This document shows, piece after piece, positions 1,631 through 37,286 of a DNA stretch of 37,763 bases. Under the pieces are notes generated by a model that was not told the origin of the DNA, ran no database searches, and saw only the letters and a program-made list of their open reading frames with translations. How positions within the stretch are numbered: the stretch's first letter is position 1; each line of letters starts with the position of its first letter. This DNA comes from a virus. Its lineage: Duplodnaviria; Heunggongvirae; Uroviricota; Caudoviricetes. The position numbers and the translations under genes were made by a program. Where the stretch lies: the IMG/VR virus record IMGVR_UViG_2522572023_000009, one strand, 5' to 3'.

Positions 1631-1634
1631 GTAA

Positions 1635-9751: not shown

Positions 9752-9775
9752 ACTAGGGTTACTGTAGTAACCCTA
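9752..9775 (+). terminator. Perfect 10-bp-stem hairpin downstream of the cargo ORFs (putative terminator)
   Basis: CTAGGGTTAC-TGTA-GTAACCCTAG; the following sequence is T-rich but has no clean U-run. Confidence 0.3.
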
Positions 9776-10027
9776 GCTGGTTCATTCTGTTAAAAAAATA
9801 ACTCCATCGTCTTTTAATATCATAGGACGTGTTCGATATCCATTTCTAAAACTAATCCGTCACTCGAACACATTAAGGTACTAAAACTAAGAATGATGGT
9901 TCTAACGTAACCCACGCACCTAAACATCTCTAAAAGAGAATGGTCCACATCCGGCACAGAGCGAACAGCTGGATTAGGTTTGACTCTGTGCCATAGATAT
10001 GTAATCTCACACTAGAGCTTATACAAC

Positions 10028-10558: not shown

Positions 10559-12487
10559 TTACACCTGTGCGACGTTATACCATGTGCCATTGATGTATTT
10601 TTGTATTGGTCTGAATACTGCGGGGTCATCACCATCGACTTCACCGACAATACCAAGCCCTGTAATTACATGGCCTGATTTTTCATACATCACACCTTTT
10701 TGCATAGTCTGAACAACACGTGTGCCCAGGCGAATATCTCGTACATAGCGAGAATCCGATTCAGCTTTGGTATATGCACCAACATCTCCCGCAGAGGGTT
10801 TGCGGGTTGTGGTGTAAAACTCTGACCAGTCAGCCTCAAATCCATAACCATCACGTGCTGAACGATAAAAAATACCGCCGTTCTTATAATTCACACGGAA
10901 CTGTACGGCAGGGCAACTCCCCGCATTCATATTGAAGTGGAGGATTAATGTCGATGCACCGCTGATATCTGCATCATAAACACCGCTATTCCAGTTCCAG
11001 CCAACAGCTTTATCATTTGCAACCCTGCTTCCTGTTTGCCCTAAAGCAAATGCAGGCTGCTGGTTTTTCGTGTTGTAGTCTCGTCGCCAGCCGGGGGCAT
11101 AAGCATCACCATGATTAATATAAGTGAATTGAGCGTTAGTGGTGCCGCCTCCGGTAGAAGTGCTTGGTGTTGTTACACGGATGGTCATGGCACCTTTATT
11201 ACCCATAACCTCAATAACGCAACCTGCAAGATGAATAGTTCCACAGCCAGTATCGGTAATAATTTTATTATTGCCGTATGACCATGAACATTTGCACATC
11301 CAGTACGGATGATTAAATGCACCACGGGAATCCAGCCATTCAATAAACTGAGCGGTTGTCCAGTTTCCGGCTTCAGTGCTCAAAGCGCCGCTATAAGCAC
11401 GACAGGCACCGATATTTTTCGTGAAGGTATCCTTTCCCGGAATATCCGCACCGTTCTGATCTTTCTGAAGACGTTTTTCAGCATTGTCATAGGCAGACTT
11501 CACTGCTTTTGGTGTTGCGGCCAGCGTTTCAGAATCGCTGTTGATGGCACTATTGAGCTGAACAAGACCTTTCCGCGCCGTGGTGGCGTCCTGTGCAGTG
11601 TATTTCCCGTTAGCAAGGTCATACGCTGTCTTAACCGCCTTTGGCGTTGCCGCAAGCGTTTCAGAATCGCTGTTGGTGGCGCTACTGAGCTGGACAAGAC
11701 CTTTTCGCGCTGTGGTGGCGTCCTGTGCAGTGTATTTCCCGTTAGCAAGGTCATATGCTGCCTTTACCGCTTTTGGTGTTGCGGCGAGCGTTTCAGACGT
11801 GCTGTTGGTGGCGCTACTGAGCTGGACAAGGCCTTTTCGCGCTGTGGTGGCATCCTGCGCAGTGTATTTCCCGTTAGCAAGGTCATAGGCGGCCTTTACC
11901 GCTTTCGGCGTTGCGGCCAGTGTTTCAGACGTGCTGTTGGTCGCGCTGCTTAACTGAGTAAAACCTTTTGCGGTCAGCGAGGCGTCCGGGTGACGTCGTG
12001 ACTGTTCGTGCTCTGCAATTTTGTCATCAACATAATCCTGCGTTGCCATCACCGTTGTGGTGTCAATGGTCAGCGCCACTGAGGCCACACTGCTGACGAT
12101 GATGACCATACGGCAGGTCTGCGAACGTCCTGAGCCTTCGGCAAGAGCTGGCTTATAACTTTCGGCCATGTTCGCCACGGCAATTAACGTTCCCGCATCA
12201 TCGTACAGGCCAAGCTCACGCATCCAGAAACCGCCCACCTCCGGCGGAATAACCAGCTCTGCGATAATATAATTACTGTTTCGTTTGTCCTGGCTGATTT
12301 TGTTCAGCGCATGTCGCCAGACTTCATGGATAAGCCCGGTCTGTCCGGCATCCGGGACAGGCAATTTACCACCGCCATCCCCGACGGCCATCGTGGTAAT
12401 GTTGACCTTCCGCCCTCCCGGCGCGGTTGCCGCTGCCAGCTTTGCTGCACCGGCAGTGGTGATAACGGTTTTGAATTTTGTGCTCAT
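10559..12487 (-). CDS. H: gpH tail fibre protein, 642 aa, with internal tandem repeats and a divergent C-terminal domain
   Basis: The N-terminus is P2 H-like. Four tandem 44-aa repeats (KG[FL]xQLSSATNS[TD]SETLAATPKAVKAAYDLANGKYTAQDATTAR) are of the phage tail-fibre repeat type. Confidence 0.88.
   Translation of the reverse strand: MSTKFKTVITTAGAAKLAAATAPGGRKVNITTMAVGDGGGKLPVPDAGQTGLIHEVWRHALNKISQDKRNSNYIIAELVIPPEVGGFWMRELGLYDDAGTLIAVANMAESYKPALAEGSGRSQTCRMVIIVSSVASVALTIDTTTVMATQDYVDDKIAEHEQSRRHPDASLTAKGFTQLSSATNSTSETLAATPKAVKAAYDLANGKYTAQDATTARKGLVQLSSATNSTSETLAATPKAVKAAYDLANGKYTAQDATTARKGLVQLSSATNSDSETLAATPKAVKTAYDLANGKYTAQDATTARKGLVQLNSAINSDSETLAATPKAVKSAYDNAEKRLQKDQNGADIPGKDTFTKNIGACRAYSGALSTEAGNWTTAQFIEWLDSRGAFNHPYWMCKCSWSYGNNKIITDTGCGTIHLAGCVIEVMGNKGAMTIRVTTPSTSTGGGTTNAQFTYINHGDAYAPGWRRDYNTKNQQPAFALGQTGSRVANDKAVGWNWNSGVYDADISGASTLILHFNMNAGSCPAVQFRVNYKNGGIFYRSARDGYGFEADWSEFYTTTRKPSAGDVGAYTKAESDSRYVRDIRLGTRVVQTMQKGVMYEKSGHVITGLGIVGEVDGDDPAVFRPIQKYINGTWYNVAQV
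11468..11968 (-). repeat. About 3.8 tandem copies of a 132-bp coding repeat inside H
   Basis: Near-identical 132-bp units are visible in the DNA and in the H translation (residues ~174–340). Confidence 0.85.
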
Positions 12488-12497
12488 TATTCCTCAC

Positions 12498-13028
12498 TTA
12501 TCCGGGGTAAACCGTAATTACATCGCCGTCGTAAGCCACACCACCGGCGAACAGGTAGCCGGGAATGTCCCGGGTAATGTTCAGGCCAATAAGATGGCGG
12601 CTTGCAGGTTTGGCATCAGCAATCAGCCGTTCCATTTCCTGATACATTGCCTCTGTGATGCCGCTTTCCAGTACACCAATATCAAGCCGGAAGGTGCCGG
12701 GCGGGTCACTGTTTTCCCACCACTCCGTCACGTTGATGAGATAGCCGAGCGGCTCCACCACACGCCGGATTGCGCCGATAGTGCCTTTATGACAGTGGAT
12801 GAAATAGGCATCGCGGATAACGGCGCGTTTTGTCGCTTCCGGCCACTTTTCATCCCACCTGTCGACCGAAAACGCCCACGCCAGCCACGGCAGCAGATTT
12901 GCCGGACAGGTATCCGGGTTCCACAGTTCACGAATCCTGACCGGCGTTTTTTCAATTTCCGCACAGGCTTTTGCGGCAGCAACTTCAAGCGGTGATGAGC
13001 CGGTCGGCAGCAGTCGCGAATCACTCAT
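12498..13028 (-). CDS. I: gpI baseplate protein, 176 aa
   Basis: Length and synteny match P2 gpI. Confidence 0.85.
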   Translation of the reverse strand: MSDSRLLPTGSSPLEVAAAKACAEIEKTPVRIRELWNPDTCPANLLPWLAWAFSVDRWDEKWPEATKRAVIRDAYFIHCHKGTIGAIRRVVEPLGYLINVTEWWENSDPPGTFRLDIGVLESGITEAMYQEMERLIADAKPASRHLIGLNITRDIPGYLFAGGVAYDGDVITVYPG

Positions 13029-13929
13029 CCGAGCCTCCGGTCACGACGCGGTATTCGGTACAGAAAGACGCCTGCGTACTGTTGAGCACGATGTCGGCCA
13101 GCGGTGCAGTCAGTTCGACACGCTGCACGCCTTCCACATGCAAAGCGGCATAAATGGCAGACAGACGGATGTCGCGCCCCAGCCGGTGCTGTGCCGTGAT
13201 ATACGCTTCCAGTTTTTTCACGGCGGCAGCGCGAATGGGTTCGCTTTCGGGACCAGGGTAAAGATACAGCGTGGCGTTTATCTGGTATTCAACGATGTCG
13301 GCAGACTGCACGGTCACGCGGTCGGCCACCGGCCTGACGTCCTCGCCATTAAGGGCGTTACGCACCACGGCCAGCAGGTCTTCGGATGCCACACCGTTAT
13401 TTTCACGTGACAGCACAGAGATAGTGACGCAGGCCGGAGACGGACTGGTGACAGAGATATCCGCGACACGCCCGTCGGCACTGCGGCCATGATACTGATA
13501 CGCACCCACCGACCCGGCGACGCTTAAACCTTCAAACGCCTGCTGAATACGCAGACGATAATCGGTGTCAGATTCCATCACTGCCGGTGTCGGCGGGATA
13601 GTCGAATCATCTGCCGGGGTGATAGTCAGGCGCGTGGTGTTGTAATTGGCACCAATCACATCAAGGTCATTACCGGCTGCACAGGCCAGCATCACCGCCC
13701 GTGCAGCCTCATTCACACGCTGACGCCAGATAAGCTCACGATAAGCATTTTCCTCCAGCAGTTTGACGAGAGGCTCGGATTCCAGCGTCAGGGTACGGGC
13801 GACCGCCTCCTGCTGGTCTTCCGGGTAAAGGGAAATCAGTGTCGCCTTGCGTTCGGCAAGAATGGTTTCAAAGTCCAGCTCCTCAACCACATCCGGTGCG
13901 GGTAGCTGGTTCAGGTCGATAATCGGCAT
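13021..13929 (-). CDS. J: gpJ baseplate protein, 302 aa
   Basis: Length and synteny match P2 gpJ. Confidence 0.88.
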   Translation of the reverse strand: MPIIDLNQLPAPDVVEELDFETILAERKATLISLYPEDQQEAVARTLTLESEPLVKLLEENAYRELIWRQRVNEAARAVMLACAAGNDLDVIGANYNTTRLTITPADDSTIPPTPAVMESDTDYRLRIQQAFEGLSVAGSVGAYQYHGRSADGRVADISVTSPSPACVTISVLSRENNGVASEDLLAVVRNALNGEDVRPVADRVTVQSADIVEYQINATLYLYPGPESEPIRAAAVKKLEAYITAQHRLGRDIRLSAIYAALHVEGVQRVELTAPLADIVLNSTQASFCTEYRVVTGGSDE

Positions 13930-13933
13930 GGTT

Positions 13934-14281
13934 TCAACTCACAGGGATGGTTAACGAAAGTGGCTGGCCGGTGTCGTTGTGCTGACCGGTTAACGTGACC
14001 GTTATTCGCCCGTCAAAACTGCGCGCCGTGGTGACGGATGACAGGGTGACGCGGGGTTCCCATTTCAGCACCGCCATGTAACAGGCGACCTTAATCTGCA
14101 ACTCAAGCGCCGGGGTCTGCGGCTGGTCAATCATTGACGCCAGCAACGAGCCGTAATCACGACGCATCACCCGTGAGCCGACCGGTGTGCGCAGGATATC
14201 GCCGATACTCTGGCTGATATGCTCAAGGTCAGTGACCGTCAGGCCATCACTGCGATTCATTCCGAGATAACGCGCAGTCAT
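13934..14281 (-). CDS. W: gpW baseplate wedge protein, 115 aa
   Basis: Length and synteny match P2 gpW. Confidence 0.88.
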   Translation of the reverse strand: MTARYLGMNRSDGLTVTDLEHISQSIGDILRTPVGSRVMRRDYGSLLASMIDQPQTPALELQIKVACYMAVLKWEPRVTLSSVTTARSFDGRITVTLTGQHNDTGQPLSLTIPVS

Positions 14282-14913
14282 AGAGGTCCCCCTGTTGTGC
14301 CGCCACTGTCGCCGGGGTGTTTATGGGTATGCAGTACCTTACCGTTTGATGAGAGTTCACCGCCGGTGTGTTCAATGTTGCCGCGCATCGTCCCGCCCTT
14401 CTGCACTTCCAGCGTGCCGGTAATCAGCCTGTTGGTGCAGACCACCTCCGGTGTGTCCAGGGTGACGCGGGTTGATGCTTTCACCATGACCACAGGCACC
14501 GTGGCAGTAACAGAATCAGAAGCCGTCACGCTGGCCGTTTTAATTCCGCTTACCGTGAGTGCACTGGTTTCGGGTTCATATTCAATCACCGCCCCGTCAG
14601 GGAAACGGATATGCAGGGCATCCGCCGACACAGACGGCGAGGGGTTATCACCGGAATAAATCCCCGGCAGAACGAACGCCGTGTCGAGTTCACCACCCAC
14701 GGCCAGAATCAGCACCTGTTCCCCCACGGAAGGTGCCCACCATGTGCGCGAACGTCCTGCGCGATGGGTCAGCCACTGAAGCCAGTCGGTGCACATGCCG
14801 CCGGTCTGCACACGGCAGCGACCGGCGTTAAGGTCGGTTTCGACGATAATGCCGGTGCGAATCATGTTGCGCAGTGCGTGCGCGAGTTCCTGAATATTTG
14901 CGAGAGTGTTCAT
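14278..14913 (-). CDS. V: gpV baseplate spike protein, 211 aa
   Basis: The track ORF begins at a TTG six codons upstream. Starting at MNTLANIQELA gives 211 aa, as I recall for P2 gpV. Confidence 0.85.
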   Translation of the reverse strand: MNTLANIQELAHALRNMIRTGIIVETDLNAGRCRVQTGGMCTDWLQWLTHRAGRSRTWWAPSVGEQVLILAVGGELDTAFVLPGIYSGDNPSPSVSADALHIRFPDGAVIEYEPETSALTVSGIKTASVTASDSVTATVPVVMVKASTRVTLDTPEVVCTNRLITGTLEVQKGGTMRGNIEHTGGELSSNGKVLHTHKHPGDSGGTTGGPL

Positions 14914-14996
14914 GCATGTGAGATTGCACAATATATAAAAGTTATGCTATCTGGATTCATTTGTAGAACCACCAGACAACATTCAAGGAGAGCGTA

Positions 14997-15782
14997 ATGG
15001 TCAGCTATAATGTGACTAATGTGTGGGAGCTAATCGTTTTTTTTCTTTGTAGCTTTGCAGTATTAGCATTTTTTAGCTTTGGTAAAAGTAACCTTATGAG
15101 GCTTATTGCACATTATTTCAATTTTGGATATTCAGACAAAAAATTAAAAAGACTTGACCGCGAGTGGCGCGACATTCAACCATTTAAAATAATTAACGGA
15201 ATCAATGTATCAGGCATTGAAAATGTGAGAATGATACAGCAGGAACTGATTGATGGAAAACTAAAAACATCGTATTTTTTCCTTACTCGCATCTGGGGTG
15301 ACATAACAAAACCACCACACATAATTAAAACAATAATTGTAATTCTGGCCAGTATTTTTTACATTCTCCTCGCATGTTACATACACAACGAACAATCCGC
15401 TATAGTAAGGGATGCCATAGGCATACCATATAAAAACATGATGTACTATGTTTATAGTGACAAAGTTCTTTTATCCTTCAAAAATAAAGCTGTTGAATTT
15501 AATAAAACTTATAGCCTTGCCGATTGCAAGAGACTGCAAAACGTATTTATAAAAGACACACTTCCTGAGATCGCCTGCAATAAGCTATTACAGCTAAACG
15601 AGGAGGACTCCGAATGGTTAAGTCAGGAGATTAAAGATAATAACAGCCACAAAAAAGCATTATTAATACTATCCCTCGTCTATTTCACTTCAGGTCTGGT
15701 TATATTCCTGTCATATACAAAATTCTTTTACGCCAATAAGAAGGTTTTAGAATACAAAGCATCAAATAAAAATCACTCATAA
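14997..15782 (+). CDS. Cargo membrane protein, 261 aa, about three predicted transmembrane helices, unknown function
   Basis: An AAGGAG ribosome-binding site sits 7 nt upstream of the ATG. Hydrophobic helices lie near residues 10–30, 120–140 and 220–242. The gene is strongly AT-rich, lies between V and S on the strand opposite the late genes, and is followed by a terminator. Confidence 0.65.
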   Translation: MVSYNVTNVWELIVFFLCSFAVLAFFSFGKSNLMRLIAHYFNFGYSDKKLKRLDREWRDIQPFKIINGINVSGIENVRMIQQELIDGKLKTSYFFLTRIWGDITKPPHIIKTIIVILASIFYILLACYIHNEQSAIVRDAIGIPYKNMMYYVYSDKVLLSFKNKAVEFNKTYSLADCKRLQNVFIKDTLPEIACNKLLQLNEEDSEWLSQEIKDNNSHKKALLILSLVYFTSGLVIFLSYTKFFYANKKVLEYKASNKNHS

Positions 15783-15791
15783 ACCTCTAAA

Positions 15792-15828
15792 CATTGAGCG
15801 ACCAGCATGGCCGCTCAATGTTTTATTG
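15792..15828 (+). terminator. Rho-independent terminator after the cargo membrane-protein gene
   Basis: A 9-bp stem CATTGAGCG/CGCTCAATG with an 11-nt loop is followed by TTTTATTG. Confidence 0.6.
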
Positions 15829-15853
15829 CGCATCAGCCTCTGCCTGGATAAAA

Positions 15854-16306
15854 CTAACGCTCAAGGTGAGCCAGGATAATCTCTTCAATCATCTGCACAT
15901 CCTCACCGGTGAAGCCGAGCAGAGGGCGCGCCGGATAATCAATTTTCTTACCGTCTTTCCGGTTTTCTTCCGACAGACCGAACTGATGCACACTGGCGAT
16001 TTTCGGTGACTTCCCGCCGTAAAATTCCATTGCTGCCTGTTCCGGGCTGGCGCGGATATGCAAAAAACGACTGGTGATAAGTTTCGCAAACATTTTTCGC
16101 TTAACGCGACCGGTCTTTTTTCTGGCGCTCTGCTGCTGGCGTGGCGCGTAGGGTGTGCCGTCCGGGGCTTTCTGTGCCATCACCCGACGCTGCTGACTCT
16201 GCCGCAGACGTTTCGCCAGTTCGGCACTCAGTCGCCGACGCCCTGACGGTGACAGCGACTCAATCAGTCCGGTCAGCCGGTCTTCAAAACGCTTAAACTC
16301 ATTCAT
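15854..16306 (-). CDS. S: gpS tail completion protein, 150 aa
   Basis: Length and synteny match P2 gpS. Confidence 0.8.
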   Translation of the reverse strand: MNEFKRFEDRLTGLIESLSPSGRRRLSAELAKRLRQSQQRRVMAQKAPDGTPYAPRQQQSARKKTGRVKRKMFAKLITSRFLHIRASPEQAAMEFYGGKSPKIASVHQFGLSEENRKDGKKIDYPARPLLGFTGEDVQMIEEIILAHLER

Positions 16307-16766
16307 CCCACTTGCTCACCAGTTCGCCATTGATATAAAGCTCCATCGGGCGGGTGACCGGCTCCGGCGGCGGGGGTTCCGGGATATTCTTCACATGCAG
16401 TGCGCCGTCGACCTCACTGACCAGCGTGCGCTCGGTCAGCATCAGGCTGATGCTGATATCAAAGCTGCTGTCATTGTTGATGTCTGCATAAAACGTGAAG
16501 CCCTTTTTCTGGCCTGCGTCGGTGGTCATGATGTCGGGCTGATTTTCCCGCAGCCACGCCAGCACCGGCACAATGAGCAGGTCAAAATCACCGGTAAAGT
16601 CGGTCACAATGACATTGAGCGTGTAACGCTTTTCGAATGACAGCGACGTCGCCAGTGTGGAGGCAATACTCCCGTTATCCACGAATATCCGCAGCATATC
16701 GGGGTTAGTTTTCAGCACCGTGACGGCATCAGTCAGCGCCCTGCGCAGGCTGTCGGGTTTGAGCAT
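16299..16766 (-). CDS. R: gpR tail completion protein, 155 aa
   Basis: Length and synteny match P2 gpR. Confidence 0.8.
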   Translation of the reverse strand: MLKPDSLRRALTDAVTVLKTNPDMLRIFVDNGSIASTLATSLSFEKRYTLNVIVTDFTGDFDLLIVPVLAWLRENQPDIMTTDAGQKKGFTFYADINNDSSFDISISLMLTERTLVSEVDGALHVKNIPEPPPPEPVTRPMELYINGELVSKWDE

Positions 16767-17019
16767 CGTTTTCGTCCTGACAGTATTTAATCATTTTTAC
16801 CTGGCTGGCACAGCGCGCCAGCGCGTTCTCAAGCTGCCGGATATCGGCACTTAAATCACCGTTCGTCTCCGGGTCGCTGCCCGGCATCGGGCAAAGGCTC
16901 ACTTTGGGGCAGGCGTTGGGGACAATCACTGGCGTCGGTGCAGGCCGGACGCTGGTGCAACCGGCGCACAGCATCAGGCAGGTCAGCACCGTACCAGCGG
17001 CGGAAATCTTCGTTTTCAT
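16729..17019 (-). CDS. lysC: LysC, Rz1-like outer-membrane spanin lipoprotein, ~96 aa
   Basis: An internal Met gives MKTKISAAGTVLTCLMLCAGC followed by a Pro-rich segment, i.e. a lipoprotein signal with a lipobox Cys. It is embedded out of frame in the 3' end of lysB and overlaps R, as in P2. Confidence 0.7.
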   Translation of the reverse strand: MKTKISAAGTVLTCLMLCAGCTSVRPAPTPVIVPNACPKVSLCPMPGSDPETNGDLSADIRQLENALARCASQVKMIKYCQDENDAQTRQPAQGAD

Positions 17020-17299
17020 TGAGTAATCTCGTGATGGTTTTCTCGCGCTGAGCTTCACGCTTCGCGGCGTTCTCCAGTTCCTGACGCAGTGCCACCTGCG
17101 CCAGCTCGTTTTTGTCTGCCCTGGTGAGCGCAACATGAAGCTGATTTTTCAGCATGGTGATGGTCGTCTGCTGCCCGCTGGCGACGTTGCTCGCCCTGTC
17201 CAGTGAGGTGCGCAGGCTGGCGTTTTCATGCTTCGCCAGAAACAGACCTACCACCGCCAGTGATAACAACACAACCAGCACAATCATCAGCTTTGACAT
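16856..17299 (-). CDS. lysB: LysB, Rz-like inner-membrane spanin, ~147 aa
   Basis: The internal start MSKLMIVLVVLLSLAVVGLFLA gives an N-terminal transmembrane helix followed by a coiled-coil-like region. In this sequence it forms the 3' part of the 455-aa track ORF because of the K frameshift. Confidence 0.7.
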   Translation of the reverse strand: MSKLMIVLVVLLSLAVVGLFLAKHENASLRTSLDRASNVASGQQTTITMLKNQLHVALTRADKNELAQVALRQELENAAKREAQREKTITRLLNENEDFRRWYGADLPDAVRRLHQRPACTDASDCPQRLPQSEPLPDAGQRPGDER

Positions 17300-17712
17300 G
17301 GTTCCCGCCCCCCAAAACGCTGACGGCAGGCCGTACGTATCAGCCGGAAAAACAGTGACGCCACGAGATAAATCAGCGCGGTAAAAATCCATCCGGCGGC
17401 GACCAGCGAGATAAACGTCGCCACCATCACCACCAGAGCCGCTGCCCGTCTGCGCCACGGCACCGGCTGCAAAAACAGCGACGTGACAATCTTCACGGCC
17501 AGCGATTCCGGCGGAAGCTCCCGCCCGTAGCGTTCCAGTACATACTCTGTGGCATACACGCCGACACAACCGGCAACCACACAGATAACCGTCGCCAGAA
17601 TCGCCCAGGCAGCGACAAAACTGACGGCCACGCTCTGCGGGTAAATCAGGGACAGTGCCAGCATCAGCGCCAGCGACACGTTCAGCATCAGTGAAAGGGA
17701 TAATTTCTTCAT
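17287..17712 (-). CDS. lysA: LysA, lysis-timing membrane protein, 141 aa
   Basis: Length matches P2 LysA; the protein has multiple hydrophobic helices. Confidence 0.8.
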   Translation of the reverse strand: MKKLSLSLMLNVSLALMLALSLIYPQSVAVSFVAAWAILATVICVVAGCVGVYATEYVLERYGRELPPESLAVKIVTSLFLQPVPWRRRAAALVVMVATFISLVAAGWIFTALIYLVASLFFRLIRTACRQRFGGREPCQS

Positions 17713-17726
17713 GGTGTTTACTCCGT

Positions 17727-18223
17727 TTAAGCCGGTACGCCGCCAGCGGTACGCCAGACGGTGACCAGTTTTTCCAGTGAATGCTCACGCTGACCGTAAC
17801 CGGCACCCGGCAGGGACGCCCAGATATTGCGACAGCGTGAAATGGCGCGCTCAATGCGTCCCGCCGGATGTCATCCAGCGCACCGCGTTCGCGGATCAAC
17901 TGAATGGCGAGTCTGTCCTGTGACAACGGACTGAAATCCGGCAGGGCAAGCTGTTTGCGGTAATGCGGCCAGAACAGGTAAAGCTGCTGATAGCGACCGG
18001 AGGCCGTGGATTTTTCACCGCGACGGTTAAACACCTTCGCCGGTCGACCATGTGCGAACGGGTGGTCACTGTAGTCGGTGAAGATTTCCGGCTTCCCGTC
18101 CAGTCCGGTGACTATCACGTCATAGCCCCGGTTTTTCGTCAGCGGATGGTTCGCCGTCCCTTCGGACACGGCCAGCATGTCGAGAAAGGCGGCGATATTC
18201 TGATGCGTGTTAATTACCGGCAT
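17727..18223 (-). pseudogene. K: gpK endolysin (T4-lysozyme-like) carrying a 1-nt frameshift deletion near 17863–17866
   Basis: The first 120 aa (MPVINTHQNIAAFLDMLAVSEGTANHPLTKNRGYDVIVTGLDGKPEIF...ALDDIR) are endolysin-like. The natural C-terminus (AGRIERAISRCRNIWASLPGAGYGQREHSLEKLVTVWRTAGGVPA, then stop) is in another frame. The span from ATG to that TAA is 497 nt rather than the 498 needed for 165 aa plus stop. Confidence 0.6.
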
Positions 18224-18504
18224 TACGGTTTCCCCCTGCCCTTAAAGCGGCGCTGAATGGCAATCTCAATCACCTGATAACCGGCGATACCCAGCATGGA
18301 GCCGATGCCGCACACCGCAGGCAGTGACAGGTCAGGAAACTGCACCAGAACAACACCGGCAACCATCGAGACAAAACCACCGAGCAACATGCGCCCGATA
18401 AACAGACGCGGGGTGATGGGTTCACCACCGGCAAGCACCTTGCCGACAACAATCAGCACCCCAATCATGAAAAGCGACAGGACGCTTTTTTCTTCTGCTG
18501 TCAT
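18223..18504 (-). CDS. Y: gpY holin, 93 aa
   Basis: Length matches P2 Y; the protein has transmembrane segments and a charged C-terminus. Confidence 0.85.
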   Translation of the reverse strand: MTAEEKSVLSLFMIGVLIVVGKVLAGGEPITPRLFIGRMLLGGFVSMVAGVVLVQFPDLSLPAVCGIGSMLGIAGYQVIEIAIQRRFKGRGKP

Positions 18505-18507
18505 GCG

Positions 18508-18711
18508 TTACTCCCACAGATTGACAGTTTCAGCCACGGGCGCGGTCTGAACGTCGGGCAGTTCGACGGCGGTGCCGTGTGGCAGCACCGCACCCAGTTC
18601 AGCCAGTCCCGGATTTGCGGCGAGCACGGTCTCAACCACGCCCTCAGTGCGCCCGTAATACCGGACACAAATGGCGTCGAGCGTGTCGCCCTGTAGCGCA
18701 AAGGTCTTCAT
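18508..18711 (-). CDS. X: gpX tail protein (LysM-like), 67 aa
   Basis: The internal start MKTFALQGDTLDAICVRYYG gives 67 aa, as in P2 X. Confidence 0.8.
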   Translation of the reverse strand: MKTFALQGDTLDAICVRYYGRTEGVVETVLAANPGLAELGAVLPHGTAVELPDVQTAPVAETVNLWE

Positions 18712-19220
18712 CAGATTTGACTCACGATGCAGCGTGGCTTGTCCTGGATACGCGCCACCGCCCAGCGCATATCCCGCCACAGTTCATCAATGGTGCTGTC
18801 AATGCTGTCAGCCTTCTTGTCGCCTTTCGCACTGGCATCCACGCCGCGATAACGCTCATAAAGCGACGCGGTCGCCATCGCACACACGGCGCGCTCGTAG
18901 TAAAAAACTTTGATGCTTTCACCGTCGATGTCGTCCGCCGGGACGTCCGCCAGACGCGTAAAACCGGCGGCAATTTTCTGTTCGCGGTACTCGTACAGCT
19001 CCGCATTCGTCTCCGCCATGCCTGACTTGATGGCCTCACGCAGACGGGCGGGGGCGACGGTCTGCTCAAGGCGCATACGTTCCCGGACGCGCTTCGGGTC
19101 GATATCGGGAAAAAAGAACGTGTTTTTAATCACCGGCTCGTCGCCTGCCGGTTGCGGGATGACCACCGTACCCTCACCGGACACGGGAGCCTCCTTTCGC
19201 GGAATAATCAGCGTCATCAT
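18711..19220 (-). CDS. L: gpL head completion protein, ~169 aa
   Basis: The internal start MMTLIIPRKEAP gives 169 aa, as in P2 L. Confidence 0.8.
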   Translation of the reverse strand: MMTLIIPRKEAPVSGEGTVVIPQPAGDEPVIKNTFFFPDIDPKRVRERMRLEQTVAPARLREAIKSGMAETNAELYEYREQKIAAGFTRLADVPADDIDGESIKVFYYERAVCAMATASLYERYRGVDASAKGDKKADSIDSTIDELWRDMRWAVARIQDKPRCIVSQI

Positions 19221-19319
19221 GACTACCTCTGAAAAGTCGGGCGGTGGACGCCGGTGCAGTGTCAGGTGATTCACCCTCACTGACCGGCGTGCCGCCCTGG
19301 CGCGGGGCGCATTCGGTTG

Positions 19320-20063
19320 TTAACTGGCTTTCTTTTTCGGGCGTCCACGTTTTGCCGGTGTCGCACTCCGGGTCTTACGCGGGGCGCGGGTGGCCGCTTT
19401 TGGCTGTGGCTCCGGCTTCGGTTTCAGTTCCCGCTCCAGTCGTTCAATCTCTTTTTTGACGCCTGCCTGACAGTCGAGCTGTGTCGCACGTTGCAGGTGC
19501 GCCAGCGCACCTGCGGCATCACCAGCGTCACGCAGAAACAGACCGGTGATTTTGTGCAGCTTTGCGCGCACTTCATCAGGCATGTCAGCCGTGGCGGTAA
19601 GTTCAAGGGTGTCCGTCAGCAGGCGGGGATCCACAGACTCACCAGCAGCGTGGGCGCGCATGGCCGCGAGCGCCACCTCCTCGGTGAACATGTACGGCGG
19701 GGTGCGGCGGTGTTTACCCGGCATGGTCAGACCGTACTTCATGGCATAACGGGCAATCTCCAGCGCACCGGCAATATCGCCGGTATCCAGACGCCACAGC
19801 ATGACTGTCATCAGAATGTCATCCTGTGCGCCTTTGCCCTGCTCCAGCACGCCGTTCACCCACGGCAACCAGAACGGCAGCAGTTCGCGTTTTTTTGCGG
19901 CCTTCAGCTCTTTTGAATAAATCGCTTTCAGTGTGCGCTGGTCTGCGGCCAGCTTGACCAGCATCTGCTCATAGACAGTTGCATGTCGCAGCGGGGCGGC
20001 TTCCCGCTGCGCGGTCATCGCTGCCGAGACCCGCATCATGTGGCGCTGTGCGGGACTCGTCAT
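19320..20063 (-). CDS. M: gpM terminase small (endonuclease) subunit, 247 aa
   Basis: Length and synteny match P2 gpM. Confidence 0.85.
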   Translation of the reverse strand: MTSPAQRHMMRVSAAMTAQREAAPLRHATVYEQMLVKLAADQRTLKAIYSKELKAAKKRELLPFWLPWVNGVLEQGKGAQDDILMTVMLWRLDTGDIAGALEIARYAMKYGLTMPGKHRRTPPYMFTEEVALAAMRAHAAGESVDPRLLTDTLELTATADMPDEVRAKLHKITGLFLRDAGDAAGALAHLQRATQLDCQAGVKKEIERLERELKPKPEPQPKAATRAPRKTRSATPAKRGRPKKKAS

Positions 20064-20066
20064 CGG

Positions 20067-21140
20067 TTACGCTCCCGGCTCTGCGGTCGCTTTAGCCGGT
20101 GTGGAGAAGTCACCGACCTTAATTTTTTCCACCAGACAACCGGCGGCGTAGTCTTCCACCACGTAATCAATGTTCATTGACTCGTAGTTCTCCACGCGGT
20201 CGAGTTTCGGGTTTTCCTCAATCACGCGCCGATGGCTGTCATCCATGTAGTAGATGGACAGGTTTTCCAGCTTCGTGATGAGCATCGCATCCGCCGGGAA
20301 GTACGGGACGCGTACCGCTGGCAGGTTACCGATGCGTTTCTGGCTGATGATGACGTCAGCGGCCAGCATTTCGCTGTTGTCTTGCTCTTTGTTAACGATG
20401 GGGAAATACTTGTCCGCCAGTAGCTGACGCCCCACAATCACCACAAGGTCAGGGTCTTCCTGATACCACGGTTCAATCAGGTTGTTGGTCGCATCCATCA
20501 CCAGTGCATCGAGGCTTACATAATCACCGCCCTTACCCACGCGGATGACCTCAGAGGTGGTGCGGCCTTCCTCGTCAGTGACCTTGCTCATCACGCGCGC
20601 CGGGGCTTCATTGCGGTATTTCTGCAGCCAGCCGACCGCCACATCCTGCAGCATCGGATTGCTGCTGCGGTCAGAGGTTTCGGCACGCTTCACGCCGTTA
20701 AAACCGGCCATGATGAAATCAAGGGACTGGCGTTTGATAATGGCGTTACGGATACGGAGCTGGAAATCCTGATAACGCGCCCACAGGTCCAGCGTTTTGT
20801 AGCGGATATAAAAATCGAAGTTAATCTGGTCGCATTCGTACTTGTTTGACGCCAGCTTCGAGAAGTCCTTCGGCTGACGCTCGGTGCCACCGGCGGTGTC
20901 GGTGGTGCTGGCGATGGAGCCGGTGACACCAATACCAATTTTTTCCCCTTTCATTTCGCTGACCGGCACAATGTTGATGCGGGTCAGAAAGTCAGAGGAC
21001 TCCTGCATGGTGTTCATCAGGGTCTGGGTGACCGACGGTTCAACGGTGAATTTTTTCGACACATCACCGGCGTCGATGCCGTTCAGTTCGGCAACACGGG
21101 ACAGGTAGGCATTAAATTTAAAGCGGGTTTCCTGGCGCAT
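20067..21140 (-). CDS. N: gpN major capsid protein, 357 aa
   Basis: Length and synteny match P2 gpN. Confidence 0.9.
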   Translation of the reverse strand: MRQETRFKFNAYLSRVAELNGIDAGDVSKKFTVEPSVTQTLMNTMQESSDFLTRINIVPVSEMKGEKIGIGVTGSIASTTDTAGGTERQPKDFSKLASNKYECDQINFDFYIRYKTLDLWARYQDFQLRIRNAIIKRQSLDFIMAGFNGVKRAETSDRSSNPMLQDVAVGWLQKYRNEAPARVMSKVTDEEGRTTSEVIRVGKGGDYVSLDALVMDATNNLIEPWYQEDPDLVVIVGRQLLADKYFPIVNKEQDNSEMLAADVIISQKRIGNLPAVRVPYFPADAMLITKLENLSIYYMDDSHRRVIEENPKLDRVENYESMNIDYVVEDYAAGCLVEKIKVGDFSTPAKATAEPGA

Positions 21141-21198
21141 AGTTTTTCCTGAAATTAAGGGTTAATCGTGAAGGTTTTCCCGGACTGACTGACGCCGG

Positions 21199-22053
21199 TC
21201 AGCAGTTCGTCATCAGGGCGTCACCGCCACCGCCGGTGGCTTTGCTGCGGCGCTGCTGGGTCAGACTTTCGGTGTGGTCGAGACTGTTTTTCAGGCGGGT
21301 GAATGCCTGACTGGTTTCATCCGCCCTGTTAGTCACCTCCTGCTTAAGTGCGGAAAAGGCAGTTTCCATCTCAGCGAGGCGCTGCTCAGTGGCGCTCAGT
21401 TTTTCCTGCACATGCTCAGCGACAGCGGTCACCGCTTCATGCACGTCATTCAGACGGGCGTCATCGCTGGCCTGTTTGCGGCCAAAAATGGATTTCACCT
21501 TTTCGGTCAGGGCGGTGAACACGGTTTCAGGCAGGTCTTCAAATTCCAGCTCAACGGGCGTTGCCACTGAAATCAGGTTTTCAGGGCTTAATTTGAAGCG
21601 GTTCAGAGGGTTGTGTTTTGCCGTGCGGCAGAATTCCAGGTATTCCGTGCCGAGGCTTGCCGGGTCATCGGTGACGGCCAGACCCACCAGATAACATTTG
21701 CCTGTATTGGCAAAGTTCGGCTGAATTTCCATTGAGGTATAGACCTTCTGCGCGGCCTTGTTCATCGCGATAAGGTCATCGGTCGGGGTGATTTTCGCAA
21801 ACAGCGCCCATTTGCCTTTCAGCGCCGAATCATCGTCAATCTTTTCGGCCTTCAGTTCGGCCACATCGCCATAACGTTTAAAAATACCGTCAGGCAGGAT
21901 GCCGCGCAGATGTTCCAGGTTAATGCGGCAACCATAGACACGCGGGTCAAAGGTTTCGGCCATTTCCTGAATATCCTGCGCACTGATGACACGCCCGTCA
22001 CAGGTGTCACCCTCAACGCCGATACGAAAGAATTTTGAGACTTTTTTTGCCAT
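21199..22053 (-). CDS. O: gpO capsid scaffold protein, ~284 aa
   Basis: The internal start MAKKVSKFFRIGVEG gives 284 aa, as in P2 gpO. Confidence 0.85.
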   Translation of the reverse strand: MAKKVSKFFRIGVEGDTCDGRVISAQDIQEMAETFDPRVYGCRINLEHLRGILPDGIFKRYGDVAELKAEKIDDDSALKGKWALFAKITPTDDLIAMNKAAQKVYTSMEIQPNFANTGKCYLVGLAVTDDPASLGTEYLEFCRTAKHNPLNRFKLSPENLISVATPVELEFEDLPETVFTALTEKVKSIFGRKQASDDARLNDVHEAVTAVAEHVQEKLSATEQRLAEMETAFSALKQEVTNRADETSQAFTRLKNSLDHTESLTQQRRSKATGGGGDALMTNC

Positions 22054-22226
22054 TGTCAGGAGTCCTGAATAGTGATTAGAGGAGTCACATGTCGGCATCA
22101 GTTTCCCGACGATGCGCATCCTCCGCCATCAGTCCCGGATGGCTTATCACTGACACAACAGCACCTTAGCGAATCGCGGGGCGCGACTCAGTAGCCTTGC
22201 CGTGTATTCATCACGGCGAGGTATTC

Positions 22227-23999
22227 ATGACCATCACCACAGACACCACTCTTTTACACGACCCGCGTCGTCAGGCGGCGCTGCTGTACTGGCAGGGATT
22301 TTCCGTGCCGCAGATTGCCGCCATGTTGCAGATGAAACGCCCGACGGTGCAGAGCTGGAAACAGCGCGACGGCTGGGATAGCGTTGCCCCCATCAGCCGT
22401 GTCGAAATGAGTCTGGAAGCGCGGCTGACCCAGCTCATCATCAAACCGCAGAAAACCGGCGGTGACTTCAAGGAAATTGACCTGCTCGGACGCCAGATTG
22501 AACGACTGGCACGGGTCAACCGTTACAGTCAGACCGGCAACGAGGCAGACCTTAATCCGAACGTCGCTAACCGCAACAAAGGCGGGCGTCGCAAACCGAA
22601 AAAGAATTTTTTCAGTGACGAGGCCATCGAAAAGCTGGAGCAGATTTTCTTTGAGCAGTCTTTCGAATATCAGTTGCACTGGTATCGCGCCGGGCTTGAG
22701 CACCGCATCCGCGATATCCTGAAATCCCGCCAGATTGGCGCGACATTTTATTTTTCCCGCGAGGCGCTGCTGCGCGCCCTGAAAACCGGTCATAACCAGA
22801 TTTTTCTGTCGGCCAGTAAAACGCAGGCGTATGTGTTCCGCGAATACATCATCGCCTTTGCCCGTCTGGTTGACGTTGACCTGACCGGTGACCCGATTGT
22901 CCTGGGCAATAACGGCGCAAAACTGATTTTTCTCGGCACCAACTCCAACACCGCGCAGAGCCATAACGGCGACCTGTACGTCGACGAGATTTTCTGGATC
23001 CCGAATTTTCAGGTACTGCGTAAGGTGGCATCAGGTATGGCCTCACAGAGTCACCTGCGTTCGACCTATTTCTCCACCCCGTCCACGCTGGCGCACGACG
23101 CCTACCCGTTCTGGTCGGGTGAACTGTATAACCGGGGACGCGCCAGCGCCGCCGAACGCGTGGAAATCGACGTCAGTCATAACGCCCTTGCCGGTGGGCT
23201 TCTCTGTGCGGACGGCCAGTGGCGACAGATTGTCACCATTGAGGACGCCCTGAAAGGTGGCTGCACGCTGTTCGACATTGAGCAGCTCAAACGCGAAAAC
23301 AGCGCCGACGATTTTAAAAACCTGTTCATGTGTGAATTTGTTGACGACAAGGCGTCGGTGTTCCCGTTCGAGGAGCTGCAACGCTGCATGGTCGACACGC
23401 TGGAAGAATGGGAAGACTATGCACCCTTTGCCGCCAATCCGTTCGGCTCCCGCCCGGTATGGATTGGTTACGACCCGTCACACCGTGGCGACAGTGCCGG
23501 ATGCGTGGTGCTGGCACCGCCGGTGGTGGCCGGTGGCAAATTCAGAATACTTGAGCGTCACCAGTGGAAAGGCATGGACTTTGCCACTCAGGCTGAATCC
23601 ATCCGCAAACTCACCGAAAAATACAACGTCGAATACATCGGTATTGATGCCACCGGCCTCGGTGTCGGCGTGTTCCAGCTCGTGCGCTCGTTCTATCCCG
23701 CCGCGCGCGACATCCGCTACACGCCGGAAATGAAAACCGCAATGGTGCTCAAGGCAAAAGACGTCATCCGCCGTGGCTGTCTGGAATATGACGTCAGCGC
23801 CACCGACATCACCAGCTCGTTTATGGCTATCCGCAAGACCATGACCAGCAGCGGACGCAGCGCCACCTATGAGGCCAGCCGCAGCGAGGAAGCCAGCCAC
23901 GCCGACCTCGCCTGGGCGACCATGCACGCCCTGTTAAATGAGCCACTCACCGCCGGTATCAGCACTCCGCTGACATCCACCATTCTGGAGTTTTACTGA
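22227..23999 (+). CDS. P: gpP terminase large (ATPase) subunit, ~590 aa
   Basis: The track ORF begins at a TTG; the ATG at 22227 (MTITTDTTLLHD) gives 590 aa, as in P2 gpP. It is transcribed divergently from O, as in P2. Confidence 0.9.
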   Translation: MTITTDTTLLHDPRRQAALLYWQGFSVPQIAAMLQMKRPTVQSWKQRDGWDSVAPISRVEMSLEARLTQLIIKPQKTGGDFKEIDLLGRQIERLARVNRYSQTGNEADLNPNVANRNKGGRRKPKKNFFSDEAIEKLEQIFFEQSFEYQLHWYRAGLEHRIRDILKSRQIGATFYFSREALLRALKTGHNQIFLSASKTQAYVFREYIIAFARLVDVDLTGDPIVLGNNGAKLIFLGTNSNTAQSHNGDLYVDEIFWIPNFQVLRKVASGMASQSHLRSTYFSTPSTLAHDAYPFWSGELYNRGRASAAERVEIDVSHNALAGGLLCADGQWRQIVTIEDALKGGCTLFDIEQLKRENSADDFKNLFMCEFVDDKASVFPFEELQRCMVDTLEEWEDYAPFAANPFGSRPVWIGYDPSHRGDSAGCVVLAPPVVAGGKFRILERHQWKGMDFATQAESIRKLTEKYNVEYIGIDATGLGVGVFQLVRSFYPAARDIRYTPEMKTAMVLKAKDVIRRGCLEYDVSATDITSSFMAIRKTMTSSGRSATYEASRSEEASHADLAWATMHALLNEPLTAGISTPLTSTILEFY

Positions 24000-25033
24000 T
24001 GAGCAAGAAAAAAGGGAAAACACCGCGACCAGCGGCAAAAACAATGACCGCCAGCGCCCCGAAAATGGAGGCATTCACCTTTGGTGAGCCGGTGCCGGTA
24101 CTCGATCGCCGTGACATTCTGGATTACGTCGAGTGCATCAGTAACGGCAGATGGTATGAGCCACCGGTCAGCTTTACCGGTCTGGCAAAAAGCCTGCGTG
24201 CTGCCGTGCATCACAGCTCCCCGATTTACGTCAAACGTAATATTCTGGCCTCGACATTTATCCCGCATCCGTGGCTTTCCCAGCAGGATTTCAGCCGCTT
24301 TGTGCTGGATTTTCTGGTGTTCGGTAATGCGTTTCTGGAAAAGCGTTACAGCACCACCGGTAAGGTCATCAGACTGGAAACCTCACCGGCAAAATATACC
24401 CGCCGTGGTGTGGAAGAAGATATTTACTGGTGGGTGCCGTCCTTCAACGAGCCAACACCTTTCACGCCCGGCTCCGTGTTTCACCTGCTGGAGCCGGATA
24501 TCAATCAGGAGCTGTACGGCCTGCCGGAATATCTCAGCGCCCTTAACTCTGCCTGGCTGAATGAGTCGGCCACGCTGTTCCGCCGCAAGTATTACGAAAA
24601 CGGCGCACATGCCGGATACATCATGTACGTCACCGATGCCGTGCAGGATCGCAACGATATCGAAATGCTCCGCGAAAACATGGTGAAGTCGAAAGGCCGC
24701 AACAACTTTAAAAACCTGTTTCTCTATGCCCCACAGGGGAAAGCCGACGGCATTAAAATTATCCCGCTCAGTGAAGTGGCAACGAAGGACGATTTTTTTA
24801 ATATCAAAAAAGCCAGCGCCGCTGACCTGCTGGACGCGCACCGCATCCCCTTTCAGTTGATGGGCGGCAAGCCGGAGAACGTCGGGTCGCTGGGCGATAT
24901 TGAGAAAGTGGCAAAGGTCTTTGTCCGCAATGAGCTTATCCCGCTACAGGACAGGATCCGCGAGATAAACGGCTGGCTCGGCCAGGAAGTCATCCGCTTT
25001 AAAAACTACTCACTGGACACTGACAACGGCTGA
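23999..25033 (+). CDS. Q: gpQ portal protein, 344 aa
   Basis: Length and synteny match P2 gpQ. Confidence 0.9.
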   Translation: MSKKKGKTPRPAAKTMTASAPKMEAFTFGEPVPVLDRRDILDYVECISNGRWYEPPVSFTGLAKSLRAAVHHSSPIYVKRNILASTFIPHPWLSQQDFSRFVLDFLVFGNAFLEKRYSTTGKVIRLETSPAKYTRRGVEEDIYWWVPSFNEPTPFTPGSVFHLLEPDINQELYGLPEYLSALNSAWLNESATLFRRKYYENGAHAGYIMYVTDAVQDRNDIEMLRENMVKSKGRNNFKNLFLYAPQGKADGIKIIPLSEVATKDDFFNIKKASAADLLDAHRIPFQLMGGKPENVGSLGDIEKVAKVFVRNELIPLQDRIREINGWLGQEVIRFKNYSLDTDNG

Positions 25034-25038
25034 ACATC

Positions 25039-25060
25039 GCCGCCTGCGGGCGGCTTTTTT
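25039..25060 (+). terminator. Rho-independent terminator after Q
   Basis: A GCCGCC-TGCG-GGCGGC hairpin is followed by TTTTTT. Confidence 0.65.
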
Positions 25061-25203
25061 ACACCCCGTCATCACGCCCTCATACGCTCACCACCGCACA
25101 AAACACCCCGCAGACACACCAACGGCCCCGGCGAACAATCTAAACGCCATCACGACGCGCTCAGACGCTGAAAAAATAAAATCAGCACCACCGCCAGCGC
25201 GCA

Positions 25204-25222
25204 GTGCTTTCCCCGCCTCGCC
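25204..25222. other. cos: cos site (19-nt P2 cohesive-end sequence, reverse orientation)
   Basis: GTGCTTTCCCCGCCTCGCC is the reverse complement of the P2 cohesive end GGCGAGGCGGGGAAAGCAC as I recall it, and it lies next to Q as in P2. Confidence 0.8.
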
Positions 25223-25345
25223 CGCCCGCTTCATGGGTCGGTTTTAATGCAGGTGCATGACATGATTTCTCCGCGCCGACACTGGCACGGAGCACTCTTA
25301 ACAGATAAACAATAATCATGCATTCTAATGCAGCAACATAAAAGT

Positions 25346-27367
25346 TTATAATTTCCTCAACAATTTCCCATTGTTCTTATCAAAGGATATCATTGTATAG
25401 TCATACCCTTCTAATGCCTCTTTTAAGACATTTTCATCTTCTGATGTAGCAAAAATGATCTGCCCTTGTCCTTTTGTTGTTTCTGCAGCATCTTTAAGTA
25501 ACTCGGCAAAACTTACTTTATTTGCTTCTTGTTGACGAGGCTCATCAAACACAATCAATCCAGGGTGATTTGTTTGAAATTTAGAACCAACAACAAATAA
25601 ACTTATTAAATAACCCCAAATGATTCTTATTCCATCACTAGCTGATGTGTCAAAACCTATATCATATCCTTCCCTAGTAGGTAAGTAATTATCTTCTGAT
25701 ATTGACACAAGTTTAGAATCAAAACTTGTAAAATTATATTTTTCTAATCGTGCAACGACTTCTTTATTAAGAAATTTTAACTTATCGGCATCATTACGCG
25801 ACAAGAAATTATCTGGCAATCCTTTTCTTTTCGCGATAAGCTTTTTATATCTACGGTGTAATGAATCCAACTCCAGTCTAATGTCCAATATACTTTTAAT
25901 GCCATCGTTAATGGCATTAATTTTATTCTCAATGTTTATTTTACGTCTCAGAAACTCCTCCTGAACAACCATTGAGGGATATTTTGACTCCCTTAATGCA
26001 TTAATATCAACTCTAATCTTGGCTATTTCCCCCTCTAAATCACTCCTCTCAACATCTTTAAGCTTTAATTGCTTTTCACTATCCGACAGAACAAACTCAA
26101 ATGCTTTTACTTGCTCTTTAATAAAGTTCAAACTATCTTCATATGTCATCAGATTTTCTTGCGATGAAAAACTTAGCAAATTATCATTATAACTTGCACC
26201 ACAAGTCGGACAAATATTTGACATTAAATCTGTTGACTTATACGCATCCGAAGATGATATTTTCTTTAAATCTTCATACTTCCTTTTATCTTCCAACAGA
26301 TTATACAATCTGTTTTTGGTCGCCTGAATTTGATATTGAATATAACTTCTATGCTCACAAATCTCTTTAATCTTTAATTCCAGAGAGTTAATTTCATCAT
26401 TTTTTTGACCTAATAACTTAACCACTGATAATTGTAAAGTTTGTTCTTCTTGCTCACCAAGAGTGTCAAACTTAATTTCTTGCAACTCTTTTTCCAGTTC
26501 ATTACGAACATCAACAATAGATCTAACGACACTACCATTTTTAATAATCAAATCTATCTTATAATGATCAAATTTTGCCACTGGTTGTTCAGGAATCCCT
26601 GTGACAACTGACGACAATTTAGAAGCAATAACTTCTGCATTGTGTTTAATTAACTTCCAATCATGATAAATAATATCAAGTTCATTTCTTAACGAACTAC
26701 GCAATAAAATATTATCATTAACATCAAGAGACATTAAAAATTCTAGAGCTCTTTTCTTTGGCTCTTTAATTCCAAATTGTGTTGGTACAGTCGCCATAAT
26801 TGACGACCATCCTTTTTTTTGCTCAACATACCATGCAGGGAAAAGTACGGATGGATAAAGAATAGTGTCCTTCCCATTATGGTTTGGAACATTTGGCAAA
26901 CTCCAACCTATAAAATCAGCTAACCACTTATAGAAACCACGTTCCCTTTCAGTATCGCCCTCTCTATGTAAAAAATAAGTACCACTCTTACTTTTTACAT
27001 TATTCTTCTCATCTATATAAATAACATTATTATTATCGTGACCGATAATATTCCTTTTCAAAGATGCTTCTATTCCCTTATGATTCTTTATTTTTAGCAA
27101 AACATAAGATGATATTACACTAACTTCAACATTATCTTTTGTCGTTAGTGCTCTAGTCAAAGATGGAGGGAATGGGATTTTTCCAGAACCGACACCTAAT
27201 GCCTTTTCCATCCCAAGTGCATATGCAATCCCATTCATGCAAGTTGATTTACCATGAGAATTCTCAACTCTTAATAAAAACAAGCCATTTGAAAAAGGTA
27301 TACTAACACCATAACGCCCATCCGAAGTATTTGCTACTAACTCCAATGAAATAATTTCCAACGACAT
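25346..27367 (-). CDS. Cargo gene 3: SMC/Rad50-like ABC ATPase with coiled-coil and CxxC hook, 673 aa (candidate LmuB/DdmC-like)
   Basis: An N-terminal P-loop (ENSHGKST), a long Lys/Glu/Leu-rich coiled-coil region with a central CPTC motif, and a C-terminal Walker B/D-loop (LIVFDEPRQQ). There is no nuclease domain after the ATPase C-lobe. The gene is strongly AT-rich. Confidence 0.7.
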   Translation of the reverse strand: MSLEIISLELVANTSDGRYGVSIPFSNGLFLLRVENSHGKSTCMNGIAYALGMEKALGVGSGKIPFPPSLTRALTTKDNVEVSVISSYVLLKIKNHKGIEASLKRNIIGHDNNNVIYIDEKNNVKSKSGTYFLHREGDTERERGFYKWLADFIGWSLPNVPNHNGKDTILYPSVLFPAWYVEQKKGWSSIMATVPTQFGIKEPKKRALEFLMSLDVNDNILLRSSLRNELDIIYHDWKLIKHNAEVIASKLSSVVTGIPEQPVAKFDHYKIDLIIKNGSVVRSIVDVRNELEKELQEIKFDTLGEQEEQTLQLSVVKLLGQKNDEINSLELKIKEICEHRSYIQYQIQATKNRLYNLLEDKRKYEDLKKISSSDAYKSTDLMSNICPTCGASYNDNLLSFSSQENLMTYEDSLNFIKEQVKAFEFVLSDSEKQLKLKDVERSDLEGEIAKIRVDINALRESKYPSMVVQEEFLRRKINIENKINAINDGIKSILDIRLELDSLHRRYKKLIAKRKGLPDNFLSRNDADKLKFLNKEVVARLEKYNFTSFDSKLVSISEDNYLPTREGYDIGFDTSASDGIRIIWGYLISLFVVGSKFQTNHPGLIVFDEPRQQEANKVSFAELLKDAAETTKGQGQIIFATSEDENVLKEALEGYDYTMISFDKNNGKLLRKL

Positions 27368-27368
27368 A

Positions 27369-27845
27369 TTAACCCACCTGAAATATTTTATTAATGTTAG
27401 TTTCGGACAGTCCAGCCTTATGTTTATTTAGCACCAACCTTTCTTCTTTGAACACATCAAGAGAAAGCAATTTCTCAGCGACCTTAAGCCCCTTTTCATT
27501 TATTTTGAACGCTCGTTCATTTCTCAAAATAAAATCCTCTGCTAATAATAGCTGTATTGCTCTATCTAAAGTTGGATCCAATCTTACTTCAGGCTTTAAA
27601 CCTTCTTTGTTTAAAAGCCAGAATTCAAACATTGCTTCATTATTCTCTGACTTTAACATCCAATTAATTAAATGAAGTTTTTTTAAAGAACAGCAACCAG
27701 CTCTCCCTGTGACAAGGAATATTATCAGCAACAAACTGCAACGCCACAATGGTCTCATATCACATGGCAAATGTTCAGGTCGTTTATTAAACGTAAACGG
27801 CCTTCCTATTATTTCATCTATCGTTATATGCATTTGCTTTTCCAT
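27369..27845 (-). CDS. Cargo gene 2: small hypothetical protein, 158 aa (candidate middle component)
   Basis: Tightly coupled to its neighbours (1-nt gaps on both sides), on the same strand and AT-rich; no motif I recognise. Confidence 0.6.
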   Translation of the reverse strand: MEKQMHITIDEIIGRPFTFNKRPEHLPCDMRPLWRCSLLLIIFLVTGRAGCCSLKKLHLINWMLKSENNEAMFEFWLLNKEGLKPEVRLDPTLDRAIQLLLAEDFILRNERAFKINEKGLKVAEKLLSLDVFKEERLVLNKHKAGLSETNINKIFQVG

Positions 27846-27846
27846 T

Positions 27847-37259: not shown

Positions 37260-37286
37260 AATCTCCCTTACACGGGCTTATTTTTT
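37260..37286. repeat. attR core: 27-bp P2-type attachment core, identical to attL
   Basis: AATCTCCCTTACACGGGCTTATTTTTT, about 80 bp downstream of the int stop. Confidence 0.85.

Follow-up and report, generated by a model that had tools for sequence, protein, structure and literature searches.

The stretch of DNA analyzed here, termed the window (37,763 nt), contains a complete P2-like prophage in reverse orientation with respect to the P2 map, as shown by blastn and tblastn comparisons with P2. The window is 100% identical to the corresponding region of E. coli O145:H28 RM12761 and RM13516, with the insertion site located between yegQ/cyaR and yegR. A search of the O145:H28 genome papers for a description of this prophage found nothing relevant. 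Homology to P2 is organized in blocks: P2 positions 24382 to 17436, from the attP core to upstream of FI, correspond to window positions 1507 to 8448; P2 13459 to 1 corresponds to 11762 to 25222 with 97.5% identity; P2 33593 to 33546 corresponds to 25204 to 25251; the stretch from gene A to cox is found at 28924 to 33158; and the C-int region is split into 33472 to 33995 and 36437 to 37286. The element is bordered by two att core copies, both identical to the P2 attP core over 27 bp, at 1507 to 1533 (ogr end) and 37260 to 37286 (int end). The CyaR small RNA (1445 to 1530; Rfam, 100.7 bits) has its 3' end inside the 27-bp core, showing the prophage to be integrated in the 3' end of cyaR, which integration regenerates. 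With the exception of Int and the endolysin K, all P2 proteins having a counterpart in the window are full length in tblastn.

The genes required for packaging belong to this intact group. The portal gene Q (23999 to 25033, plus strand; RefSeq "phage portal protein") encodes 344 amino acids with 98.5% identity to P2 gpQ over 343 of the 344 residues. The gene of the terminase ATPase subunit P (22227 to 23999, plus strand, 590 amino acids) and that of the terminase endonuclease subunit M (19320 to 20063, minus strand, 247 amino acids), both annotated accordingly in RefSeq, show 99.7% and 97.6% identity to P2 gpP and gpM over the full length, so that the terminase genes as a pair lie within 97 to 99.7% of those of P2. 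Downstream of Q, a rho-independent terminator of the P-Q operon is detected by a terminator scan at 25039 to 25054 (plus strand) and aligns with the P2 terminator tQ (P2 160 to 181). The cos site follows at 25204 to 25222, placed between the stop codon of Q and the stop codon of the first cargo gene (25346 to 27367, minus strand), 170 nt past the Q stop compared to 167 nt in P2. Between tQ and cos, the sequence agrees with the P2 reference at ∼88% identity and with further phage genomes in the databases at 97 to 98%. On its far side, the variable region beyond cos is bounded by the replication gene A (28878 to 31151, minus strand; RefSeq "replication endonuclease"), with 96.6% identity to residues 1 to 755 of the 761 residues of P2 gpA. 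In the blastn and tblastn comparisons with NC_001895, cos is syntenic with P2 in its location, flanked by Q and its terminator on one side and by the nonessential region downstream of gene A on the other.

The plus strand at 25204 to 25222 reads GTGCTTTCCCCGCCTCGCC, and its reverse complement on the minus strand, GGCGAGGCGGGGAAAGCAC, is identical at 19 of 19 positions to the cohesive-end sequence of P2 and P4. In the P2 record NC_001895, the same sequence is annotated twice, as "cosL; left cohesive end" (1 to 19) and as "cosR; right cohesive end" (33575 to 33593), and it also forms the first 19 nt of the P4 record NC_001609. A search of the window allowing up to 3 mismatches finds GGCGAGGCGGGGAAAGCAC at this single site with 0 mismatches, and no match with 3 or fewer mismatches occurs in 100 dinucleotide-preserving shuffles; the analytically expected chance count for a 19-mer is ∼3e-7 (2 × 37763/4^19). 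Position 25222 furthermore coincides exactly with the start or end of many phage genomes whose database records are linear, in agreement with where cleavage is known to occur.

The 19-mer is embedded in a conserved core of ∼56 bp (25197 to 25252, minus strand) with the organization CTGCATTAAAACC-N17-(19-mer)-TGCGCGC. This core was defined by an alignment of seven sequences, comprising the window, P2, P4, 186, and the P2-like phage records D8, vB_YpM_22, and 12474III, for which the record ends of P2, P4, and 186 were joined first. In none of the invariant columns from CTGCATTAAAACC through GCGCGC does the window deviate from the common base. Compared to the P2 reference, the core shows 3 differences, each of them a variant present in 186 or P4. 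Its extent matches the "55-bp core" of P2-family cos sites, which is attributed to Ziermann & Calendar 1990 in the papers citing it (PMC5694545; PMC2231350); the functional extent of cos as used here is taken from these citations together with the alignment. The cos of coliphage 186 (NC_001317) shows the same architecture and the common core, including the variant CCGACCCAT found in both the window and 186, with a cohesive end, GGCGTGGCGGGGAAAGCAT, that differs from that of the window at 2 of 19 positions. With P2 and P4, in contrast, the site has in common the same 19-mer as well as the same core of ∼55 bp and, with regard to P2, the same position ∼170 nt downstream of Q and tQ.

A reading of the 19-mer as a chance or decayed look-alike, and thus as a nonfunctional cos, is refuted by the uniqueness search, the synteny with P2, and the core alignment, and its probability is practically nil: the expected chance count is minute, the shuffles yield no match, P2, P4, and 186 all share the conserved core, and the position corresponds to that in P2. 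The preliminary description had placed a P2-type cohesive-end sequence beside the portal gene, reversed in orientation, and had proposed an alignment to the P2 cos region as a check. This alignment shows no mismatch to the cohesive-end sequence, and the placement stands. Judged from its sequence, the segment is a genuine P2-type cos in its canonical place, a textbook feature that is already known.

The flank of the core contains a further repeat. The core motif TTTTAATGCAG (25242 to 25252) recurs as TTCTAATGCAG at 25323 to 25333, 81 bp farther to the cargo side, where the second copy lies inside the palindrome TGCATTAGAATGCA. Such TGCAT boxes flank cos in the window (25323 to 25333) as well as in P2, P4, and 186, and they are absent from the equivalent cos flank of vB_YpM_22 and 12474III in the alignment. 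A role of the boxes on the cargo side as extra terminase-binding elements was considered and dropped, as the boxes are not universal.

Annotations of P2 and 186 allow the cleavage positions to be transferred to the window. On this basis, the minus strand would be nicked between 25223 and 25222 and the plus strand between 25204 and 25203, a geometry that would leave 5' overhangs. P2 itself probably packages from covalently closed circles that are cleaved at cos. For P4, a user of the P2 packaging machinery, covalently closed circular monomers are described as the preferred substrate, cut at the 55-bp cos (PMC2231350), a description for which that paper cites Pruss 1974/1975 and Bowden & Calendar 1979. 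In the live phage, the terminase composed of gpM and gpP would act on a covalently closed circular monomer, recognizing the core of ∼55 bp and introducing two nicks 19 nt apart, resulting in 5'-protruding cohesive ends, followed by threading of the linear DNA through the gpQ portal. The cos site would thereby fix the virion ends of this prophage: the virion chromosome would carry Q at its left end and the cargo operon at its extreme right end, with the stop codon of the last cargo gene ∼124 bp from the terminus. With the cognate terminase and portal genes intact, the site appears to be packaging competent.

The segment between the cos core and gene A (25253 to 28923) replaces orf91-tin-old of P2 and shows no P2 homology in blastn. 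It corresponds to the variable hotspot described previously (PMC9122126), with a GC content of 33% compared to 55% for the prophage core. Three cargo open reading frames (ORFs) are located here on the same strand, 1 nt apart and running from the gene A side towards cos, all of them annotated as hypothetical in RefSeq. PADLOC profiles assign the first (27847 to 28767, minus strand; 306 amino acids as ORF, 302 in RefSeq) to the effector LmuA (1.1e-29), the second (27369 to 27845, minus strand; 158 amino acids as ORF, 154 in RefSeq) to LmuC (2.5e-23), and the third (25346 to 27367, minus strand; 673 amino acids) to the SMC/Rad50-like ATPase LmuB (1.1e-98, residues 1 to 669). The cargo is therefore classified by profile as a Lamassu defense system, LmuA-LmuC-LmuB. 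Compared to Lamassu systems of the LmuA/LmuB/LmuC (DdmABC) type, the three profiles are matched with near-full-length coverage in the order A-C-B. The translation of LmuB contains GKST at residues 39 to 42, CPTC at 386 to 389, and LIVFDE at 604 to 609, corresponding to a Walker A-like motif, a central CxxC in the presumed coiled-coil region, and a Walker B motif, respectively. The effector domain of LmuA has neither a significant hit in Pfam nor any match to NCBIfam or PDB sequences, none of the three cargo proteins has a PDB sequence match, and a full-text literature search with their accession numbers returned nothing.

The region gpA-cos-gpQ is a published defense hotspot of P2, in which P2 itself carries old and tin (PMC9122126; PMC13586616) and for which 1650 gene arrangements have been reported (Rousset et al. 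2022, PMC9122126). The cargo proteins of the window are exactly those of P2-hotspot system #51, "AAA_13/DUF3732," with 79 occurrences (Table S5B of Rousset et al. 2022, PMC9122126). Their sequences are present in Table S5 only and are absent from Table S2, which holds the systems cloned by those authors. The cargo could accordingly be ruled out as the system of "three genes with no clear predicted domain" protecting against P1 in that study. As in P2, variable low-GC cargo lies between the replication gene A and cos, without any structural difference of the hotspot; the differences concern the content, with Lamassu instead of orf91-tin-old as the neighbor of cos, and the direction of transcription, which runs towards cos in the window and away from it in P2. 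The carrier prophage also differs from P2 in being defective, as described below. An operon of three cargo genes abutting the packaging end of the genome had been recognized in the preliminary description, and this adjacency holds, with the contiguous ORFs ending beside cos. What the description missed is the canonical layout of P2 and the identity of the cargo as Lamassu; as old and tin of P2 occupy the same place, the position of cargo beside cos is simply the canonical arrangement. Neither the P2 cos sequence nor its location beside gpQ nor the adjoining defense hotspot goes beyond textbook or published knowledge, and the value of the site lies mainly in annotation, as its placement assigns three "hypothetical" genes to the gpA-cos hotspot as a predicted Lamassu system.

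Another idea is that cos could act in recombination here, with the cohesive ends as an entry point for swapping hotspot cargo, which would explain the location of Lamassu. Rousset et al. 2022 (PMC9122126) propose this as speculation, and the boundary between conserved and variable sequence only 30 to 45 bp from the cos cut, the low GC content of the cargo relative to the core, and the large number of gene arrangements at the locus (PMC9122126) are in line with it. This idea nevertheless concerns the arrival of the cargo and not what cos does; it is compatible with the explanation preferred here and offers no alternative to it, and as an account of the site itself it is highly improbable.

Two lesions distinguish the prophage from a functional phage. 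The integrase gene is interrupted by ISEc8, an IS66 family element of 2442 bp (33995 to 36436, minus strand), which splits int at ∼codon 93. The 5' fragment (33717 to 33994, plus strand) comprises ∼codons 1 to 93 in tblastn against P2 Int and is annotated in RefSeq as "site-specific integrase, incomplete." The 3' fragment (36437 to 37180, plus strand) comprises codons 91 to 337, with 99.6% identity to P2 Int residues 91 to 337. The insertion element, also named ISEc8 in RefSeq, shows the Pfam domains IS66 transposase, TnpB, and HTH_Tnp_1. Its identity is further indicated by the size of ∼2.4 kb, ORFs for tnpA, tnpB, and tnpC, the terminal inverted repeats GTAAGCGTACAG (GTAAGCG), and an 8-bp target duplication, AAAATAAC, at 33987 to 33994 and 36437 to 36444. 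The second lesion is found in the endolysin gene K (17727 to 18223, minus strand), a pseudogene with a 1-nt deletion near 17864 that is annotated as "frameshifted" in RefSeq. In tblastn, K appears in two pieces, amino acids 1 to 120 and 121 to 165, with base 17864 common to both. The shifted frame of K stays open across lysA into the lysB frame, forming an ORF of 455 amino acids (16856 to 18223, minus strand), which is probably due to chance, even though open alternative frames of this length are unusual.

The preliminary description took the packaging signal to be retained and excision to be probably lost, and both statements are borne out: the exact 19-mer and the conserved core are in place, int is split by ISEc8 with its target duplication, and no second P2-type int is detected in RM12761 at megablast sensitivity. 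Because int is split, no circle would form, and in the RM12761 strain cos would lie idle in cis for lack of a circular substrate. As the att cores are intact, along with cox and ogr, it is formally possible that an incoming phage with the same type of Int could still excise the element.

The distribution of the lesions among sequenced genomes dates this defect. A match to the cos region of any kind is found in 2156 of 5426 complete E. coli genomes (∼40%), and the block of cos plus cargo occurs in 32 complete E. coli genomes. The junction int::ISEc8, by comparison, is present in 2 of the 5426 genomes, RM12761 and RM13516 only. In strain PSUO2, this prophage is found at the same insertion site, with identical cargo, C, and Cox proteins, an intact integrase of 337 amino acids, and an intact endolysin. 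The lesions are therefore clone specific and the decay is very recent; a widespread and otherwise intact phage lineage is represented in RM12761/RM13516 by a copy inactivated only very recently.

This bears on the meaning of the intact cos. At 97.5% identity, the probability of an unchanged 19-mer amounts to 0.975^19, or ∼62%. Since the lesions are recent and an unchanged 19-mer is the default outcome, the term "retained" in the preliminary description says nothing about selection, and the intact site is best explained as the default expectation and not as evidence of maintenance. Taken together, the locus very probably represents the genuine cos of a P2-like (Peduovirus) prophage, which should be competent by sequence and idle in cis and which owes its intactness to the recency of the lesions rather than to selection.

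A selective explanation would hold that cos is kept because the prophage, dead for excision and lysis, is mobilized together with Lamassu in trans by a superinfecting P2-like phage, similar to a satellite. Such a phage would supply Int, endolysin, and particles, while cos, both att cores, cox, ogr, and the structural genes of the resident element are intact; P4 and cosmids bearing the P2 cos are packaged in trans by P2 functions (PMC2231350), and a continued exchange of defense genes by defective P2 elements has been raised as a possibility (PMC13586616). This explanation is quite improbable, as lesions confined to RM12761 and RM13516 are too young for selection to have acted or become visible, the unchanged 19-mer is expected by default, and the search of RM12761 mentioned above finds no resident source of a P2-type Int. 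The intact cos, att cores, and cox could also make the dead prophage a de facto satellite, or recombination at the cos ends could move the cargo into an incoming phage; this is unlikely as well. If it were true, the prophage could be excised, packaged, and spread by any superinfecting P2-like phage of its Int type, and Lamassu would stay mobile despite its "dead" carrier.

The RM12761 chromosome contains a second place matching the cos region, outside the window. In this genome, P/Q and a P2-type int are each found at a single place. As a second P2-type terminase/portal pair or int is lacking, the second cos-like site probably represents a P4-like satellite or an orphan cos.

Further differences from P2 are found elsewhere in the prophage. 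The second P2 hotspot, at the Z/fun position (8449 to 9941), holds different cargo with a low GC content of 36%. It consists of an ORF of 70 amino acids (8687 to 8899) overlapping the gene of an LPO_1073/Vpar_1526 family protein (8874 to 9686; NCBIfam, 1e-52), and these two ORFs have no match in PADLOC. The immunity repressor C (33302 to 33601, plus strand) is only ∼65% identical to P2 C, and cox (32905 to 33180, minus strand) shows 84% identity, compared to 97 to 100% for the genes flanking the C/cox region (33158 to 33472). On account of this divergence, the prophage is probably heteroimmune to P2. The tail-fiber gene H contains a tandem repeat of 132 bp with 3.5 copies and 89% matches (11486 to 11947). 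Divergence from P2 in the C-terminal part of H and in the assembly gene G suggests that the receptor specificity is different.
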